Shown here piece after piece: positions 2,931 to 19,819 of a stretch of DNA of 20,401 bases; within the stretch, counting starts at the first letter, position 1, and every line of letters starts with the position of its first letter. The translations under genes and the position numbers were made by a program. The DNA is from a virus (lineage: Duplodnaviria; Heunggongvirae; Uroviricota; Caudoviricetes): the IMG/VR virus record IMGVR_UViG_2513237219_000003; one strand, written 5' to 3'. The notes under the pieces were generated by a model that ran no database searches, had not been told where the DNA came from, and saw only the letters and a list, made by a program, of their open reading frames with translations.

Positions 2931-3031
2931 CAGATATAATTTCCACCAAAGGCAGTAGTTGCTGATGCTAAGAATTGGTGATGCTGCCAACTTACTGATT
3001 TAGTGTATGATGGTGTTTTTGAGGTGCTCCA

Positions 3032-3307
3032 GTGGCTTCTGTTTCTATCAGCTGTCCCTCCTGTTCAGCTACTGACGGGGTGGTGCGTAACGGCAAAAGC
3101 ACTGCCGGACATCAGCGCTATCTCTGCTCTCACTGCCGTAAAACATGGCAACTGCAGTTCACTTACACCGCTTCTCAACCCGGTACGCACCAGAAAATCA
3201 TTGATATGGCCATGAATGGCGTTGGATGCCGGGCAACCGCCCGCATTATGGGCGTTGGCCTCAACACGATTTTCCGCCATTTAAAAAACTCAGGCCGCAG
3301 TCGGTAA
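3032..3307 (+). CDS. insA: IS1 InsA (copy A), 91 aa
   Basis: Translation matches IS1 InsA; the A6C slippery motif TTAAAAAAC for the InsAB' -1 frameshift lies at about 3281..3289. Confidence 0.9.
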
Positions 3308-3729
3308 CCTCGCGCATACAGCCGGGCAGTGACGTCATCGTCTGCGCGGAAATGGACGAACAGTGGGGATACGTCGGGGCTAAATCGCGCCAGCGCTGGC
3401 TGTTTTACGCGTATGACAGGCTCCGGAAGACGGTTGTTGCGCACGTATTCGGTGAACGCACTATGGCGACGCTGGGGCGTCTTATGAGCCTGCTGTCACC
3501 CTTTGACGTGGTGATATGGATGACGGATGGCTGGCCGCTGTATGAATCCCGCCTGAAGGGAAAGCTGCACGTAATCAGCAAGCGATATACGCAGCGAATT
3601 GAGCGGCATAACCTGAATCTGAGGCAGCACCTGGCACGGCTGGGACGGAAGTCGCTGTCGTTCTCAAAATCGGTGGAGCTGCATGACAAAGTCATCGGGC
3701 ATTATCTGAACATAAAACACTATCAATAA
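3226..3729 (+). CDS. insB: IS1 InsB frame (copy A); expressed as an InsAB' fusion by -1 frameshifting
   Basis: Translation matches the IS1 InsB frame; overlaps insA in the -1 frame. Confidence 0.9.
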
Positions 3730-3751
3730 GTTGGGAGTCATTACCTAAGAA

Positions 3752-4180
3752 TTATTCAATATCTATTCCTGTAATATCTTTTATCTTTTTCCTTGCAAAG
3801 CCTTTTGCTAGTGATTTTGAAACACTTATTAGTGTACTAATTCCCTCATCCTTAAAGTTTGTTTTTATAGTTTGCCAGACCTCCTTTTGACGCAAGTCAG
3901 CAATAAAATCATGCCCTCTTGCTGTCAACCTCAGTGGTACTTCGATCCAACTATATCCAACACCTTCCCCTAACTCGTTGGACATTATATGACCGAACCC
4001 AGGTTTTCCATCAACCCTGACTATTAATTCGTAGTCGCATAATAATCGCATATGGAAAATAAAATTTTGGTCATATCTATTAAAGCCATTATCCTCTAGT
4101 TCACTAAGCATCGTGTCAGGGCCATGAGTTTTTTCGAATGCGATAAGTAGATCTTTTAGATATTGCTGGTCTAATTTCAT
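3752..4180 (-). CDS. Hypothetical 142-aa protein with a winged-helix-like N-terminus (DUF2513-like by motif recall); accessory gene in the ea8.5/ea22 position
   Basis: Intact ORF with GGAGG Shine-Dalgarno 6 nt upstream; motif LTARGHDFIADLRQKEVWQTIK resembles the conserved GH-F...R...VW core recalled for DUF2513 proteins; AT-rich codon usage; no lambda counterpart recognised. Confidence 0.6.
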   Translation of the reverse strand: MKLDQQYLKDLLIAFEKTHGPDTMLSELEDNGFNRYDQNFIFHMRLLCDYELIVRVDGKPGFGHIMSNELGEGVGYSWIEVPLRLTARGHDFIADLRQKEVWQTIKTNFKDEGISTLISVSKSLAKGFARKKIKDITGIDIE

Positions 4181-4208
4181 TGCCGCCTCCGTGACATGTC
4201 ACAGAGAT

Positions 4209-4547
4209 TTATATCATTAATTTTGTTTCGTGCCAGCCTTTGGTCACCCAGCATTGTGAGTCACCATTACACGGGCATGAATTAACAGGAACTCTCTCGC
4301 CGCACTTACCGCAACGTTTTCTGCTGATCGATTTTATACGCCAGCGCACACGTGCATCATCCTGGCGGCTCAGTAACGCGATGTACTCACCAAACTCGTA
4401 AGGCGCATGCCTGAAGCGGCGCGTGGCTCAGTTACGATCCAGCATTTCAATTTCCTGAGCATCAAGTACAAGCTCCAGCTTACGCATACCGGATGATGCT
4501 TGCTTGGCTCTCTGATCGACTTTGCGCTCTGCTGATGATTTAGCCAT
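4209..4547 (-). pseudogene. 112-codon zinc-finger-like ORF interrupted by a single in-frame TGA at codon 40 (4428..4430); possibly Ea8.5-like
   Basis: Manual translation MAKSSAERKVDQRAKQASSGMRKLELVLDAQEIEMLDRN-stop-ATRRFRHAPYEFGEYIALLSRQDDARVRWRIKSISRKRCGKCGERVPVNSCPCNGDSQCWVTKGWHETKLMI; CxxC...CxC motif; ends 28 nt upstream of the 142-aa gene start. Confidence 0.4.
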
Positions 4548-4743
4548 TCTGCTTTTCCTGCATTAGGAGAAAGACAATCATGGCGGCGCGGATACTTCCG
4601 GTATCTTTTTACTCGATATTACCCTTCAATGGCACATACAAGAAGAGAGCCATCAACAGGAGTGAGTGAGGAATCGACAACCAGCAACGCTTAATTATCT
4701 ATAGTGTCGTATTTGCTTCATAAAATATGGCGAATAACACAAA

Positions 4744-4775
4744 GCCCGCAGCAGCTCATTGTGCGGGCTTTTCTT
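4744..4775. terminator. Terminator-like hairpin (GCCCGCA / TGCGGGC stem) with flanking T and A tracts; strand ambiguous
   Basis: Perfect 7-bp GC-rich stem with 11-nt loop followed by TTTTCTT on the plus strand and preceded by AAA; lies between the truncated gene at 4841..5298 and the zinc-finger-like ORF. Confidence 0.45.
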
Positions 4776-4840
4776 ATACATACTTCCTAGAGATAATTCT
4801 ATGGAGGCATTAAATTAATACTGTCATTGGTAATATCATA

Positions 4841-5298: not shown

Positions 5299-5313
5299 GG
5301 TAATGACTCTAAC

Positions 5314-5817
5314 TTATTGATAGTGTTTTATGTTCAGATAATGCCCGATGACTTTGTCATGCAGCTCCACCGATTTTGAGAACGACAGCGACTTCCGTCC
5401 CAGCCGTGCCAGGTGCTGCCTCAGATTCAGGTTATGCCGCTCAATTCGCTGCGTATATCGCTTGCTGATTACGTGCAGCTTTCCCTTCAGGCGGGATTCA
5501 TACAGCGGCCAGCCATCCGTCATCCATATCACCACGTCAAAGGGTGACAGCAGGCTCATAAGACGCCCCAGCGTCGCCATAGTGCGTTCACCGAATACGT
5601 GCGCAACAACCGTCTTCCGGAGCCTGTCATACGCGTAAAACAGCCAGCGCTGGCGCGATTTAGCCCCGACATAGCCCCACTGTTCGTCCATTTCCGCGCA
5701 GACGATGACGTCACTGCCCGGCTGTATGCGCGAGGTTACCGACTGCGGCCTGAGTTTTTTAAGTGACGTAAAATCGTGTTGAGGCCAACGCCCATAATGC
5801 GGGCTGTTGCCCGGCAT
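5314..5817 (-). CDS. insB: IS1 InsB frame (copy B)
   Basis: Translation matches IS1 InsB. Confidence 0.9.
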
Positions 5818-6011
5818 CCAACGCCATTCATGGCCATATCAATGATTTTCTGGTGCGTACCGGGTTGAGAAGCGGTGTAAGTGAACTGCAGTTGCCATGT
5901 TTTACGGCAGTGAGAGCAGAGATAGCGCTGATGTCCGGCGGTGCTTTTGCCGTTACGCACCACCCCGTCAGTAGCTGAACAGGAGGGACAGCTGATAGAA
6001 ACAGAAGCCAC
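5736..6011 (-). CDS. insA: IS1 InsA (copy B)
   Basis: Translation matches IS1 InsA. Confidence 0.9.
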
Positions 6012-6066
6012 TGGAGCACCTCAAAAACACCATCATACACTAAATCAGTAAGTTGGCAGCATCACC

Positions 6067-6640: not shown

Positions 6641-7317
6641 CGCCATTGCTCCCCAAATACAAAACCAATTTCAGCCAGTGCCTCGTCCATTTTTTCGATG
6701 AACACCGGCACCATCTCGTCAAAACTCGCCATGTACTTTTCATCCCGCTCAACCACGACATAATGCAGTCCTTCACGCTTCATACGCGGGTCATAGTTGG
6801 CAAAGTACCAGGCATCTTTTCGTGTCACCCACATGCTGTACTGCACCTGGGCCATGTAAGCCGACTTTATGGCCTCGAAACCACCGAGCCGGAACTTCAT
6901 GAAATCCCGGGAGGTAAACGGGCATTTCAGCTCAAGGCCATTGCCGTCACTGCATAAACCATCGGGAGAGCAGGCGGTGCGCATACTTTCGTCGCGATAG
7001 ATGATCGGGGATTCAGTAACATTCACGCCGGAAGTGAATTCAAACAGGGTTCTGGCGTCGTTCTCGTACTGTTTTCCCCATGCCAGCGCCTTAGCATTAA
7101 CTTCCGGAGCCACACCGGTGCAAACCTCAGCCAGCAGGGTGTGGAAGTAGGACATTTTCATGTCAGGCCACTTCTTTCCTGAGCGGGGCTTGGCTATCAC
7201 GTTGTGAACTTCTGAAGCGGTGATGACGCCGAGCCGTAATTTGTGCCATGCATCATCCCCCTGTTCGACAGCTCTCACGTCGATCCCGGTACGCTGCAGG
7301 ATAATGTCCGGTGTCAT
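6637..7317 (-). CDS. exo: Lambda exonuclease (Red-alpha), 226 aa
   Basis: Full-length translation matches lambda Exo; start overlaps the bet 3' end as in lambda. Confidence 0.95.
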
Positions 7318-7760
7318 GCTGCCACCTTCTGCTCAGTGGCTTTCTGTTTCAGGAATCCAAGAGCTTTCACTGCTTCGGCCTGTGTCAGTTCTGACGATGC
7401 GCGAATGTCGCGGCGAAATATCTGGGAACAGAGCGGCAATAAGTCGTCATCCCATGTTTTGTCCAGGGCAATCAGCAGAGTGTTAATCTCCTGCATGGTT
7501 TCATCGTTAACCGGAGTAATGTCGCGTTCCGGCTGACGTTCTGCGGTGTATGCGGTATTTTCGACAATGCGCTCGGCTTCATCCTTGTCATAGATACCAG
7601 CAAATCCGAAGGCCAGACGGGCACACTGAATCATGGCTTTATGCCGTAACATCCGTTTGGGATGCGACTGCCACGGCCCCGTAATTTCTCTGCCTTCGCG
7701 GGTTTTGAATGGTTCGCGGCGGCATTCATCCATCCACTCGGTAACGCAGATCGGATGATT
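7314..7760 (-). pseudogene. bet: bet (Red-beta) 3' fragment; 5' part deleted, junction at about 7760/7761
   Basis: Translation matches the C-terminal part of lambda Bet (…NHPICVTEWMDECRREPFKTREGREI… to the end); upstream frame hits a stop and unrelated sequence beyond 7760. Confidence 0.9.
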
Positions 7761-11629: not shown

Positions 11630-12712
11630 TTAGAACTGGTAAACCATACCTACAGCAACGATATCATCGGTAGCAACGCCAGATGCTTTCGTGAAATCGC
11701 TCTTATCAATCAGGTTGATTTTGTAATCAACAAAAGTGGACATATTTTTGTTGAAGTAATAGGTTGCACCTACATCAATATATTCAACCAGGTCCTGATC
11801 ACCCCACGCACCCAAGTCTTTTCCTTTAGATTGCAGGTAAGCAACGGACGGACGCAGACCGAAGTCGAACTGATATTGTGCAACTACTTCGAAGTTTTGT
11901 GCTTTGTTGGCAATATGGTTATTACCAAAAACAGTCATGTTCTGGGTTTCAGAATAGGTGGTAGCCAGATAGATGTTGTTCGCATCATATTTCAGACCAG
12001 CTGCCCATACTTCAGCATTTTGACCAGATGCATTCAGGCTGTTGTTACCGTAGATAACCTGATTATTAGTGCGGTCAGATTTAGCATAGGTTGCACCTAC
12101 ACCGAATCCTTCATACTCATAAGTAGTGGAGAAACCGAAACCATCACCATTAGCTTCAGTTACGTCAGTGCGGTCATTTTTACCCTGATACTGAGCAGCA
12201 AAGTTCAGACCATCAACCAGACCAAAGAAGTCATTGTTACGATAAGTTGCAACACCTGTGGTGCGACCAGTCATGAATACATCTGTTTGGGTCCAGGTAT
12301 CGCCACCGAATTCTGGCAGAACGTCGGTCCATGCACCAATATCGTATGCTACACCGTAGTTACGGCCATAATCGATGGAGCCGTAGTCACCGAATTTCAG
12401 GCCAGCGAAGGCAAGACGGGTTTTATCTTTGGAGGAACCTTGAGATTCAGCGCGGTTGCCTTTGAATTCATATTCCCACTGACCGAAACCAGTCAGTTGA
12501 TCGTTGATTTGGGTTTCACCTTTGAAGCCAAGACGGGCATAAGTAGTATCACCATCATCTGCATCATTAGAGGAGAAGTAGTGCTTAGCATTAACTTTCC
12601 CGTACAGATCCAGCTTGTTACTGTCTTTATTATAAATTTCAGCTGCCTGAGCAGACATCGCCATCAGTACTGATGCAGCTACAGCAGAAATTGCCACTGT
12701 TAATTTTTTCAT
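11630..12712 (-). CDS. nmpC: NmpC/OmpD-family general porin, apparently intact (360 aa with signal peptide)
   Basis: Translation matches the NmpC/OmpC porin family with signal peptide [23 protein letters not shown] and C-terminal …VAVGMVYQF; the track ORF starts 20 codons upstream, but the MKKL start fits the signal peptide. Confidence 0.9.
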
Positions 12713-13139
12713 CGTGAGCCCTTTTTTTGAACTATTATTAAAAAATGATGTCACTGCGCGATAAATATTCATCTAATCAATGTGATTATTTCAAGATGTA
12801 AGTTTTGGTTTCTCATTTGATTTGTGAAGTAGATCTCTATTTTTATCTGAACTTTTTCTATCGAATCCTATTCATGGCTCTTGGCTGAATAAAAATAAAT
12901 CTATTAGCCAATTTATATTAATGGCTGTTATTTATAAGTGCTCTATAATTTGAAGATTCAATTTAAACCAGCTAAAAATAACGCTGGAAATTATTTGTTG
13001 GTTATTTGTTGAGATTTGCTTATGTATTTGTAGTGGTGTTTTCAATACTCGGTAGCATTCTCGCAAATATCATTTAGTGGTTTACGTACGTAAAAAATTG
13101 GTTATGCTGTTAAGAGTGGTTACTTCGTCACACAGCTTA

Positions 13140-15988: not shown

Positions 15989-16152
15989 TCACCATAACTG
16001 CTAATCATTCAAACTATTTAGCCTGTGACAGAGCCAACACGCAGTCTGTCACTGTCAGGAAAGTGGTAAAACTGCAACTCAATTACTGCAATGCCCTCGT
16101 AATTAAGTGAATTTACAATATCGTCCTGTTCGGAGGGAAGAACGCGGGATGT

Positions 16153-16347
16153 TCATTCTTCATCACTTTTAATTGATGTATATGCTCTCTTTTCTGACGT
16201 TAGTCTCCGACGGCAGGCTTCAATGACCCAGGCTGAGAAATTCCCGGACCCTTTTTGCTCAAGAGCGATGTTAATTTGTTCAATCATTTGGTTAGGAAAG
16301 CGGATGTTGCGGGTTGTTGTTCTGCGGGTTCTGTTCTTCGTTGACAT
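16153..16347 (-). CDS. ylcI: YlcI-like (DUF3950) small protein, 64 aa
   Basis: Translation MSTKNRTRRTTTRNIRFPNQMIEQINIALEQKGSGNFSAWVIEACRRRLTSEKRAYTSIKSDEE; basic N-terminus and ribbon-helix-helix-like core. Confidence 0.65.
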   Translation of the reverse strand: MSTKNRTRRTTTRNIRFPNQMIEQINIALEQKGSGNFSAWVIEACRRRLTSEKRAYTSIKSDEE

Positions 16348-16546
16348 GAGGTTGCCCCGTATTCAGTGTCGCTGATTTGTATTGTCTGAAGTTGTTTTTA
16401 CGTTAAGTTGATGCAGATCAATTAATACGATACCTGCGTCATAATTGATTATTTGACGTGGTTTGATGGCGTAGATGCACGTTGTGACATGTAGATGATA
16501 ATTATTATCATTTTGCGGGTCCTTTCCGGCGATCCGACAGGTTACG

Positions 16547-16844: not shown

Positions 16845-16855
16845 GTGGGGTGAAT

Positions 16856-19819
16856 ATGGCAGTAAAGATTTCAGGTGTACTGAAAGACAGCACAGGAAAA
16901 CCGGTACAGAACTGCACAATCCAGCTGAAAGCAAAACGTAACAGCACCGCGGTGGTGGTGAACACGCTGGCCTCAGAAAATCCGGATGAAGCCGGGCGTT
17001 ACAGCATGGACGTTGAGTACGGTCAGTACAGCGTTATTCTGTTGGTGGAAGGATTCCCGCCGTCACATGCCGGGACCATCACCGTGTATGAAGATTCCCG
17101 ACCCGGTACGCTGAATGATTTTCTCGGTGCCATGACGGAGGATGATGCCCGTCCGGAGGCTCTGCGCCGTTTTGAACTGATGGTGGAAGAGGTGGCGCGT
17201 AACGCGTCCGCAGTGGCACAGAACACGGCAGCCGCGAAGAAGTCAGCCAGTGATGCCAGCACATCTGCCAGTGAGGCGGCAACTCATACAACCGATGCTG
17301 CAGGCTCAGCTCGTGCCGCCAGCACGTCAGCCGGACAGGCTGCATCATCTGCTCAGTCAGCATCTTCCAGCGCAGGAACGGCATCAACAAAGGCCAGTGA
17401 AGCATCGAAAAGTGCTGCTGCTGCAGAGTCCTCAAAAAGCGCGGCAGCTACCAGTGCCGCTGCGGCGAAAACGTCAGAAACGAATGCGGCAGCGTCACAA
17501 CAATCAGCAGCCACTTCTGCATCCGCCGCGACCACGAAGGCGTCAGAAGCTGCCACCTCAGCCCGGGATGCGGCGGCCTCAAAAGAGGCGGCAAAATCAT
17601 CAGAAACGAGCGCAGCCTCGAGCGCCAGTAGTGCAGCCTCCTCGGCAACAGCGGCAGGAAATTCCGCGAAGGCGGCAAAAACGTCCGAGACGAACGCTAA
17701 GTCTTCTGAGACGGCAGCAGCACAGAGTGCCTCCGCAGCAGCAGACTCAAAAACAGCGGCTGCCTCATCTGCCAGCGCCGCGTCAACAAATGCCGGGCAG
17801 GCCTCAGCCAGTGCCACCGCTGCCGGAAAGTCGGCAGAAAGCGCCGCATCATCCGCTTCAACAGCCACAACGAAGGCTGGCGAAGCCACTGAACAGGCCA
17901 CGGCAGCAGCGAGGTCAGCTTCCGCAGCGAAGACATCCGAAACGAACGCGAAAGCGTCGGAAACCAGCGCAGAATCCTCAAAAACGGCTGCCGCATCGTC
18001 AGCCAGTTCGGCGGCGTCATCGGCATCATCGGCGTCTGCTTCAAAAGATGAGGCGACCAGACAGGCGTCAGCAGCGAAGGGCAGCGCCACGACGGCATCC
18101 ACGAAGGCGACAGAGGCAGCTGGCAGTGCGACGGCGGCAGCTCAGAGCAAAAGTACGGCGGAATCCGCGGCAACGCGCGCCGAGACAGCAGCAAAACGGG
18201 CAGAGGATATTGCATCCGCCGTGGCGCTTGAGGATGCGAGCACGACGAAAAAGGGGATAGTACAGCTCAGCAGTGCGACTAACAGCACTTCCGAGTCACT
18301 GGCGGCAACGCCAAAAGCCGTTAAGGCCGCGTATGAGCTGGCTAACGGGAAATACACCGCACAGGATGCAACGACAGCACAGAAAGGGATAGTTCAGCTT
18401 AGCAACGCGACCAACAGCACATCTGAAATGCTGGCGGCAACGCCAAAGTCGGTAAAGGCAGCCTATGACCTTGCTAACGGGAAATATACTGCTCAGGACG
18501 CTACGACAGCACAAAAAGGAATTGTCCAGCTCAGTAGTGCAACCAACAGCGCATCTGAAACGCTTGCCGCGACACCGAAAGCAGTGAAAGCAGCTAATGA
18601 TAATGCGAATGGTCGGGTACCTTCTGCCCGTAAGGTGAATGGTAAGGCGCTTTCAGCGGATATAACACTGACGCCGAAAGATATTGGTACGCTTAACTCA
18701 ACAACAATGTCATTCAGCGGTGGTGCTGGTTGGTTCAAATTAGCAACGGTAACCATGCCACAGGCGAGTTCTGTTGTTTCAATTACGTTGATTGGTGGCG
18801 CGGGATTTAACGTGGGGTCACCTCAACAGGCAGGTATATCTGAACTTGTTTTGCGTGCAGGTAATGGTAATCCGAAGGGGATTACTGGTGCTTTATGGCA
18901 GCGCACATCGACAGGGTTTACAAATTTTGCCTGGGTCAATACATCTGGTGATACTTACGATATTTACGTTGCAATCGGAAATTATGCGACTGGTGTAAAT
19001 ATTCAATGGGATTATACCAGTAATGCCAGCGTGACGATTCATACGTCACCAGCATATTCTGCTAATAAGCCGGAAGGGTTAACGGACGGTACAGTTTATT
19101 CACTCTATACGCCATCAGAGCAGTTTTATCCGCCTGGCGCACCAATCCCGTGGCCATCAGATACCGTTCCGTCTGGCTATGCCCTGATGCAGGGGCAGAC
19201 TTTTGACAAATCTGCATACCCGAAACTTGCAGCCGCTTATCCGTCAGCCGTGATCCCTGATATGCGTGGCTGGACGATTAAGGGCAAACCCGCCAGTGGT
19301 CGTGCCGTATTGTCTCAGGAACAGGACGGCATTAAATCGCACACCCACAGCGCCAGCGCATCCAGTACGGATTTGGGGACGAAAAACACATCGTCGTTTG
19401 ATTACGGAACCAAATCCACGAATAACACCGGGGCGCATACCCATAGTATTAGCGGGACTGCAAATAGTACCGGTGCGCACCAACACAAGAGTTCCGGTGC
19501 ATTTGGTGGCACGAACACGAGCATTTTCCCTAATGGTTATACCGCGATTTCAAATCTAAGCGCGGGGATTATGAGCACAACAAGCGGTAGTGGCCAGACT
19601 CGTAATGCAGGGAAGACATCATCAGATGGTGCTCATACCCACTCGCTGTCCGGCACTGCTGCAAGCGCAGGCGCACATGCACATACTGTCGGTATTGGTG
19701 CTCATACGCACTCCGTTGCGATTGGCTCACACGGACACACCATCACCGTTAACGCTGCTGGTAACGCGGAAAACACCGTCAAAAACATCGCATTTAACTA
19801 TATTGTGAGGCTTGCATAA
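16856..19819 (+). CDS. stf: Side tail fiber protein Stf, full-length single ORF (about 987 aa)
   Basis: N-terminus [26 protein letters not shown]… and C-terminus …[31 protein letters not shown] match lambda Stf; long Ala/Ser/Thr-rich shaft; His-rich HxH repeats near the tip; ATG at 16856 with GTGGGGTGA upstream. Confidence 0.95.
18242..18615 (+). repeat. Three tandem copies of a 129-132 bp unit inside stf, encoding 43-44 aa tail-fibre repeats
   Basis: Units begin at 18242, 18371 and 18503; encoded peptides TT(A)(Q)KGIVQLS(S/N)ATNS(T/A)SE(S/M/T)LAATPK(A/S)VKAAY(E/D)[11 protein letters not shown]; the third copy diverges at its end. Confidence 0.85.

Follow-up and report, generated by a model that had tools for sequence, protein, structure and literature searches.

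Is a 112-codon reading frame that is broken by a single in-frame TGA a dead gene, a sequencing error, a pair of small genes or a case of stop-codon recoding? The question arises at positions 4209..4547, on the minus strand, of a 20,401-nucleotide stretch of tailed-phage DNA (IMG/VR record IMGVR_UViG_2513237219_000003), which we refer to in its full length as the window. The initial annotation described there a zinc-finger-like frame that begins at an ATG with an AGGA-type ribosome-binding site, encodes 39 residues, meets a TGA at 4428..4430 and continues in the same frame for 72 codons. Translation bears out this description, with the precision that every element lies on the minus strand, the strand having been left unnamed. 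The frame reads MAKSSAERKVDQRAKQASSGMRKLELVLDAQEIEMLDRN, TGA, ATRRFRHAPYEFGEYIALLSRQDDARVRWRIKSISRKRCGKCGERVPVNSCPCNGDSQCWVTKGWHETKLMI, TAA, that is, 39 codons, a stop and 72 codons. On the plus strand the stop appears as 'tca' at 4428..4430, the start codon as 'cat' at 4545..4547 and the Shine-Dalgarno-like AGGA, read directly from the sequence 8 nucleotides 5' of the ATG, as 'tcct' at 4556..4559.

The TGA, at codon 40, leaves an open reading frame of 39 codons (4431..4547, minus strand) and severs 72 codons and the TAA from translation (4209..4427, minus strand). The cysteine cluster noticed earlier downstream of the stop, CGKCGERVPVNSCPCNG, is indeed found in the translated downstream half, and the distance of 28 nucleotides to the following 142-amino-acid gene agrees with the coordinates: the frame ends with its TAA at 4209 and the next gene (3752..4180, minus strand) starts at 4180. 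This neighbor encodes a DUF2513 protein (Pfam E-value 6.8e-11); a literature search on DUF2513 in prophages returned nothing relevant. Across 4209..4547 the plus strand holds only short ORFs of 29 to 53 amino acids, without support. As we argue below, the feature is very probably an inherited nonsense pseudogene of a 112-amino-acid phage accessory gene, a member of the family of epsilon15 gp49, phiV10 p55 and PHROG 536.

Intact homologues carry a cysteine at codon 40

When codon 40 is read as Cys, the window frame matches PHROG 536 from end to end (E-value 6.7e-49), with residues 1-111 on profile positions 2-114 of 115. A search of a large protein database, with the stop-replaced frame as query, retrieved 299 homologous proteins, nearly all of them 112 amino acids long. 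Such matches exceed what a chance open frame would produce. In a tblastn search of phage genomes, the frame is recovered as one continuous match in 55 phages, and a single CDS of 339 nucleotides is annotated in phiV10 (PhiV10p55), epsilon15 (gp49) and Klebsiella phage ST11-OXA245phi3.2. Both epsilon15 gp49 (NP_848257) and phiV10 p55 (YP_512310) resemble the window frame over its full length, with 70-85% amino-acid identity, and have in common with it the 112 codons and the pattern of C79, C82, C91, C93 and C99. However, these two genes are intact, with Cys at codon 40, where the window copy has TGA. The uninterrupted ORF of about 112 codons that marks a functional member of the family is thus lacking in the window.

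The residue at the stop is well conserved among close relatives. C40, C79, C82, C91 and C93 are invariant in 44 aligned homologues, down to 69% identity, and C99 is nearly so. In the family at large, which counts hundreds of copies in enterobacterial prophages, C79 and C82 are invariant and C91, C93 and C99 conserved, C40 being a mark of the enterobacterial subfamily. Codons for the last five of these cysteines other than C40 are kept 3' of the stop, while C40 is the mutated codon. At this codon Chlobot, phiV10, ESBL15 and YSP8-1 have TGT, and TGC is found in both epsilon15 and the Klebsiella phage; in a DNA alignment with the phage homologues, TGA occurs in the window alone. Since the homologues have TGT or TGC at this position, the lesion amounts to a single third-position TGY to TGA nonsense change. 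The nearest intact alleles, 97% identical, are those of E. coli ESBL15 and YSP8-1 (both protein WP_001129736) and of phage Chlobot; all three have TGT, and they share with the window the int-xis-orf55-DUF2513 context. Inactivation has also occurred independently elsewhere in the family, as 7 of 116 TGY alleles are broken by a frameshift or by another stop, such as C79*. Repeated independent loss fits a dispensable accessory gene.

Predicted architecture of the intact protein

What would the stop remove? We modeled an intact homologue 93% identical to the window frame with AlphaFold. With distant representatives in the alignment the model reached a pLDDT of 90.2; a model based on close homologues alone (pLDDT 64.8) was discarded. 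Helices are predicted at residues 5-19, 30-43, 52-74 and 100-107, with a strand at about 23-29 and a cysteine knuckle between the last two helices. The architecture predicted from this confident model is made of an N-terminal helix, a putative ribbon-helix-helix (RHH) core (the strand, helix A at 30-43 and helix B at 52-74) and a C-terminal Cys knuckle, which probably binds zinc. On this model, the ancestor would have been a small dimeric DNA-binding transcriptional regulator of the RHH type. The 39-codon remnant would encode the N-terminal helix, the beta-strand and part of helix A; the severed codons would encode the remainder of helix A, helix B and the knuckle with its five cysteines.

The set of proteins against which this predicted fold can be compared is that of the RHH proteins: the MetJ/Arc/CopG group, the antitoxins ParD, MazE and TacA, NikR, the N-terminal domain of PutA, and MatP. 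Unlike these, the gp49 family adds an N-terminal helix and a C-terminal Cys knuckle, and the domain of the window copy is truncated within helix A. In RHH proteins, helix B is required for the dimer core. With helix B and the Cys knuckle lost, the product should be non-functional, and the model thus points to an inert 39-residue stub.

The family itself is small and stands apart in the databases. A profile search of 1.84 billion representatives returned only 179 clusters (at 50% identity), mostly full-length proteins of 105-135 amino acids, together with fragments. PHROG 536 bears the label 'transcriptional regulator', a name that comes from annotation and not from a tested function, and our literature search on epsilon15 gp49 found no experimental function for it. 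Comparing the repaired protein with Pfam, NCBIfam and PADLOC gave nothing above threshold, the one weak NCBIfam match being to a YbfE-like 'LexA regulated protein' (E-value 0.04). No Pfam RHH model reaches threshold for the gp49/PHROG 536 family. In phmmer searches against all PDB chains there was no match at an E-value of 10 or less, and Foldseek comparison of the model with the PDB gave no significant match (best E-value 3.9). When the family profile was compared with the PDB, its CxxCG..(L/V)P...C...C region aligned with the C4 zinc fingers of F-plasmid TraR and E. coli YbiI, at marginal E-values (0.067 and 0.085, respectively) and with a second cysteine pair that is not CxxC. Neither TraR nor YbiI appears in the two fold searches of the model. 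We regard this marginal likeness to the TraR/DksA zinc fingers as a lead and not as membership.

Relationship to lambda Ea8.5

Is this gene a counterpart of lambda ea8.5? That had been proposed initially, Ea8.5 being a small homeodomain/zinc-finger protein encoded at the equivalent position, together with an alignment to Ea8.5 homologues as a check. BLASTP against lambda Ea8.5 itself (93 amino acids, NC_001416) detected no similarity (E-value 25), and the comparison of the family profile with the PDB listed no Ea8.5 homologue. The folds also appear to differ: that of the gp49 family is predicted to be RHH and not homeodomain, and 2M7A, the solved Ea8.5 homologue, is absent from both our sequence and our fold searches. 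The 2M7A structure is described as a hybrid homeodomain/zinc-finger fold (Kwan et al. 2013, in the account given of that work in PMC8614690).

The two genes do resemble each other in being small genes for Cys-containing accessory proteins, placed between xis and ea22 in the exo-xis region. The order is int, xis, orf55, ea8.5, ea22 in lambda (NC_001416); in the window and in E. coli ATCC 8739 it is int, xis, an orf55-like gene, the DUF2513 gene, the pseudogene and, further on, an ea22-like gene. Since position alone does not define homology, a shared place on the map does not make the window gene Ea8.5-like. The approximate map position therefore stands, and the homology does not.

The TGA allele is shared by many genomes and is probably old

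If the TGA were a sequencing or assembly error, the true genome would have TGT at codon 40 and an intact gene, and the single-base difference from intact alleles is of the kind that an error could make. To count the allele, we used a 55-nucleotide probe in which the A of the TGA stands at position 28, a placement that forces each 28-mer megablast seed to include that base. Among 5,426 complete E. coli genomes, 638 have the gene and at least 64 match the probe. Among the matches listed (60 of the 64), strains PK6 and E7476, verified as TGA, are present, and ESBL15 and YSP8-1, which have TGT, are absent. Exact-pattern scans of IMG/VR, with the same 29-nucleotide context, found 19 TGA contigs versus at least 120 TGY contigs. 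The TGA is present in three independent assemblies of ATCC 8739 and in several NCTC strains, and bases 4100-4800 of the window are found with 100% identity in ATCC 8739 and some 30 further complete genomes. The allele is also found in prophages at other chromosomal sites, for instance in PK6, next to torI/dsdC. A sample of ten TGA alleles from E. coli yielded 7 haplotypes, which form two clades; overall there are 7-8 haplotypes or more.

An error would thus have had to arise in 64 or more complete genomes that were sequenced independently, as well as in 19 IMG/VR contigs, and to do so on 7-8 haplotypes or more, as a substitution and not as a homopolymer indel. We consider it almost certain that the TGA is real, and the suspicion of an error raised when the frame was first described can be dropped. 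A freshly inactivated gene had also been suggested. The gene is indeed inactivated; it is not freshly so, because the TGA is common to many genomes in haplotypes that have since diverged. RefSeq has reached the same diagnosis for the identical sequence in ATCC 8739, where ECOLC_RS26175 is recorded as a pseudogene ('hypothetical protein; internal stop'), and in each of the TGA genomes that we inspected PGAP likewise marks the locus as a pseudogene, noting its internal stop.

The same TGA allele occurs in E. coli SZQ1 on a 43,337-bp circular 'plasmid', pOHT76-1_1 (gene at 16041-16379). This lambdoid element has genes for tail, lysis and replication functions besides int/xis, and it may be an excised or episomal phage.

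Constraint appears relaxed on both sides of the stop

Do the TGA alleles still evolve as coding sequences? Replacements in the TGA haplotypes include A2T, K3R and A10V upstream of the stop, and R43H, R47H, A48S, R66H, G80R, G80D and C99Y downstream, several of them at residues that vary hardly or not at all among the aligned intact homologues; one TGA allele has a frameshift as well. R47H characterizes the window's own clade; G80R and C99Y are found throughout the second TGA clade, and G80D is an independent second replacement at G80. Within the TGA haplotypes, the ratio of non-synonymous to synonymous variants is 8:3 downstream of the stop and 5:0 upstream. Nei-Gojobori dN/dS values are 0.68-0.97 between TGA alleles, versus 0.10-0.25 between intact homologues; with 4-14 substitutions per pair and no formal test, these values are indicative. 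Taken as such, they suggest that constraint is relaxed on both halves in TGA alleles.

One contig, IMGVR_UViG_2711768040_000014, has an open TGT allele and yet bears both G80R and C99Y. It looks like a recombinant whose 5' half is ESBL15-like and whose 3' half is that of the second TGA clade. These sites have thus been shuffled by recombination, and an order in which the stop came first and G80R and C99Y followed is not strictly proven.

These patterns bear on the idea that the halves act separately, either as a functional 39-amino-acid N-terminal peptide or as a Cys-knuckle fragment started internally, for which a 46-amino-acid ORF with a GTG start (4349..4209) would be the candidate. Stubs of this kind have repeatedly been called as genes: a PHROG of 40 positions exists (phrog_34005), which the repaired frame also matches, as does a recorded 39-amino-acid peptide, P0207, which comes from a sister TGA allele and differs from the window peptide at residues 2 and 5. 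In addition, the depositors of Chlobot annotated the last 46 codons alone as a CDS. However, the Chlobot gene is an intact 112-codon ORF and the 46-codon CDS an annotation choice, and we found, in checking whether the two halves are normally separate genes, that homologues are overwhelmingly single 112-amino-acid ORFs. The five variants in the N-terminal 39 codons of the TGA alleles, all non-synonymous, include changes at K3, elsewhere invariant, and at A10, elsewhere nearly so, and the stub is without helix B of the RHH core. Nor did a crude scan of the minus strand upstream of the pseudogene find any sigma-70-like promoter, which suggests that the 39-amino-acid stub may not be expressed either. 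Two functional halves are, in our judgment, very unlikely.

The Chlobot record (positions 1361-1839) is itself worth a remark: the deposited annotation splits the intact 112-codon gene, calling its last 46 codons a 'transcriptional regulator', and it also has an overlapping, out-of-frame CDS for a 'UmuD-like protein'. The split annotation is probably an artefact.

Could the UGA be recoded?

A UGA at the position of a conserved cysteine is the textbook signature of a selenoprotein, and programmed read-through of a UGA is well known from the Qbeta coat gene. Read in this way, the window gene would specify selenocysteine at codon 40, or its stop would be read through in a programmed manner, giving a conditional or low-level full-length regulator. 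The locus has features in common with both systems: as in Qbeta coat/A1 and in selenocysteine UGAs such as that of fdhF, an in-frame UGA is followed by an open, homologous frame, and as in the latter, the homologues have Cys at the UGA position, a residue invariant among close relatives. Of 18 complete IMG/VR TGA alleles, 17 keep the 72 codons after the stop open. It is even possible to draw a weak hairpin 3' of the stop, with a 4-nucleotide apical loop at nucleotides 23-26 counted from the U of the UGA, a spacing roughly like that of the SECIS element of E. coli fdhF, which has a G23-U24 loop and a bulged U17.

However, unlike in Qbeta and fdhF, the stop in the window gene is not conserved, folding and an Rfam scan revealed nothing SECIS-like after it (a weak, non-canonical element might escape these general methods), and the downstream codons seem to be without purifying selection. 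The loop of the hairpin is AUGC, which has neither the G23-U24 nor the bulged U17. Over the 50-60 nucleotides 3' of the UGA, folding is no better than that of dinucleotide-shuffled sequence (z = +0.84 and -0.13). The AUGC hairpin, the only small one that recurs (nucleotides 19-30), is predicted as well in ESBL15, the nearest of the intact TGT alleles tested; the hairpin therefore did not arise together with the stop, and in ESBL15 it simply follows from the conserved protein sequence. An Rfam scan at E-values up to 10 found no family on the coding (minus) strand, the sole overlap being a chance-level snoRNA match on the plus strand (E-value 8).

The population data point the same way. The stop is a minority allele, in 64 of the 638 genomes with the gene and in 19 IMG/VR contigs versus at least 120. 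TGA alleles are altered at residues of the Cys knuckle itself (G80R, G80D, C99Y), with dN/dS near 1. Moreover, position 40 is often Arg in distant members of the family, so that Cys40 is not an obligatory metal or redox residue. We thus find no support for the read-through considered in the initial annotation, the close relatives having Cys at this position, the downstream half showing relaxed constraint and the RNA 3' of the stop being neither SECIS-like nor unusual in structure. Recoding by selenocysteine insertion or programmed read-through has, in our view, a very small probability.

A weaker form of the same idea deserves separate mention. In E. coli, UGA is subject to a basal read-through of 0.1 to a few percent by tRNA-Trp, and such leakage may affect the window allele too. 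In a further reading, the codon-40 UGA would be decoded at a low or conditional level (as selenocysteine, or by near-cognate Trp or Cys insertion), yielding traces of a full-length RHH/zinc-knuckle regulator. If so, the stop would be an expression throttle rather than a lesion. We hold this throttle to be extremely unlikely.

The pseudogene lies in a decaying prophage

The preferred reading, an inherited nonsense pseudogene, is to be set against the state of the prophage around it. In ATCC 8739, the locus belongs to a lambda-like prophage next to ybhC, with the order int, xis, orf55-like, DUF2513, pseudogene, a 'DNA repair protein' fragment, a 204-amino-acid hypothetical gene and an IS1; beyond this IS1 come an ea22-like fragment, a TraR/DksA-like gene, DUF1382, DUF1317, exo, bet, gam, kil and cIII. 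As a whole, the window is closest to strain NCTC9040, yet the two are not collinear. The RefSeq annotation of the NCTC9040 locus shows a truncated recT, to which a ren fragment is joined, as well as a umuD/humD-like remnant, and it lists no immunity, replication, head or tail-shaft genes. The recT fragment of the window (7314..7733) is an ORF of only 139 amino acids, its truncation being apparent from the comparison with NCTC9040.

Two IS1 copies have further altered the region. The first (2977..3732, plus strand) lies between the orf55-like and DUF2513 genes, where ATCC 8739 has none; the second (5311..6066, minus strand) is inverted with respect to the first and truncates the 204-amino-acid hypothetical gene. 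The two copies are 99% complementary and bracket a 1,578-bp segment that contains the DUF2513 gene, the pseudogene, the umuD-like remnant and the 3' part of the 204-amino-acid gene, in an arrangement like that of a composite transposon. The second copy also adjoins a deletion relative to ATCC 8739 and NCTC9040, which has taken the 5' part of the 204-amino-acid gene, the ea22-like fragment and the TraR/DksA (orf73-like) gene.

The umuD-like remnant itself, at 4622-4687 on the minus strand, corresponds to genes called 'DNA repair protein', 'HumD family translesion DNA polymerase' or 'S24 family peptidase' in relatives. It is missing its C-terminus and is a second pseudogene fragment, directly upstream of the first. 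A little further, between the 204-amino-acid gene and the pseudogene region, lies a GC-rich hairpin (4734-4775, AAAGCCCGCA...TGCGGGCTTT) that is flanked by T-runs on either side. It looks like a bidirectional intrinsic terminator; a terminator scan placed its plus-strand version at 4753-4769, where Rfam gave only chance-level 'leader' matches.

Further along the window, a DLP12-like late region (ybcN, ninE, rusA, quuD, an ompC/nmpC-like porin gene, essD, rrrD and bor) leads almost directly to a tail-fibre gene; the porin gene is at 11630-12772 and the tail-fibre gene at 16850-19819. Judging from this gene content, the window prophage is cryptic and heavily decayed.

The pseudogene region may not be expressed. 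In lambda, the exo-xis region is transcribed from pL. As the NCTC9040 locus has no annotated immunity genes and its recT is truncated beside a ren fragment, pL is probably missing here. An IS1 copy also lies upstream of the pseudogene in the window, where the terminator-like hairpin is found too.

Conclusions

The scenario that we favor is a simple one. The ancestor would have been a 112-amino-acid accessory gene in the exo-xis (early-left) region of a lambda-like prophage beside ybhC. One third-position transversion would have turned Cys40 (TGT or TGC) into TGA, so that translation would end after 39 residues, inside helix A, with the loss of helix B and the whole Cys knuckle. The lesion appears to be old and inherited, and to have spread with the prophage through descent and recombination, both halves of the gene now probably drifting, as does much of this IS1-riddled, deletion-bearing prophage.

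At the level of the locus, the result is a routine nonsense lesion in a cryptic prophage, at a place that RefSeq already flags as a pseudogene. It holds a lesson of method, however: allele frequency and downstream constraint should be checked before a Cys-to-UGA change followed by an open frame is read as recoding. If pOHT76-1_1 is a phage, losing the gene would be compatible with a largely complete phage genome. As for the family, gp49/PHROG 536 is without a Pfam model and is a candidate for curation, and the prediction of an RHH core joined to a Cys knuckle offers a lead into a poorly understood part of lambdoid and epsilon15-like phage genomes, the exo-xis region.
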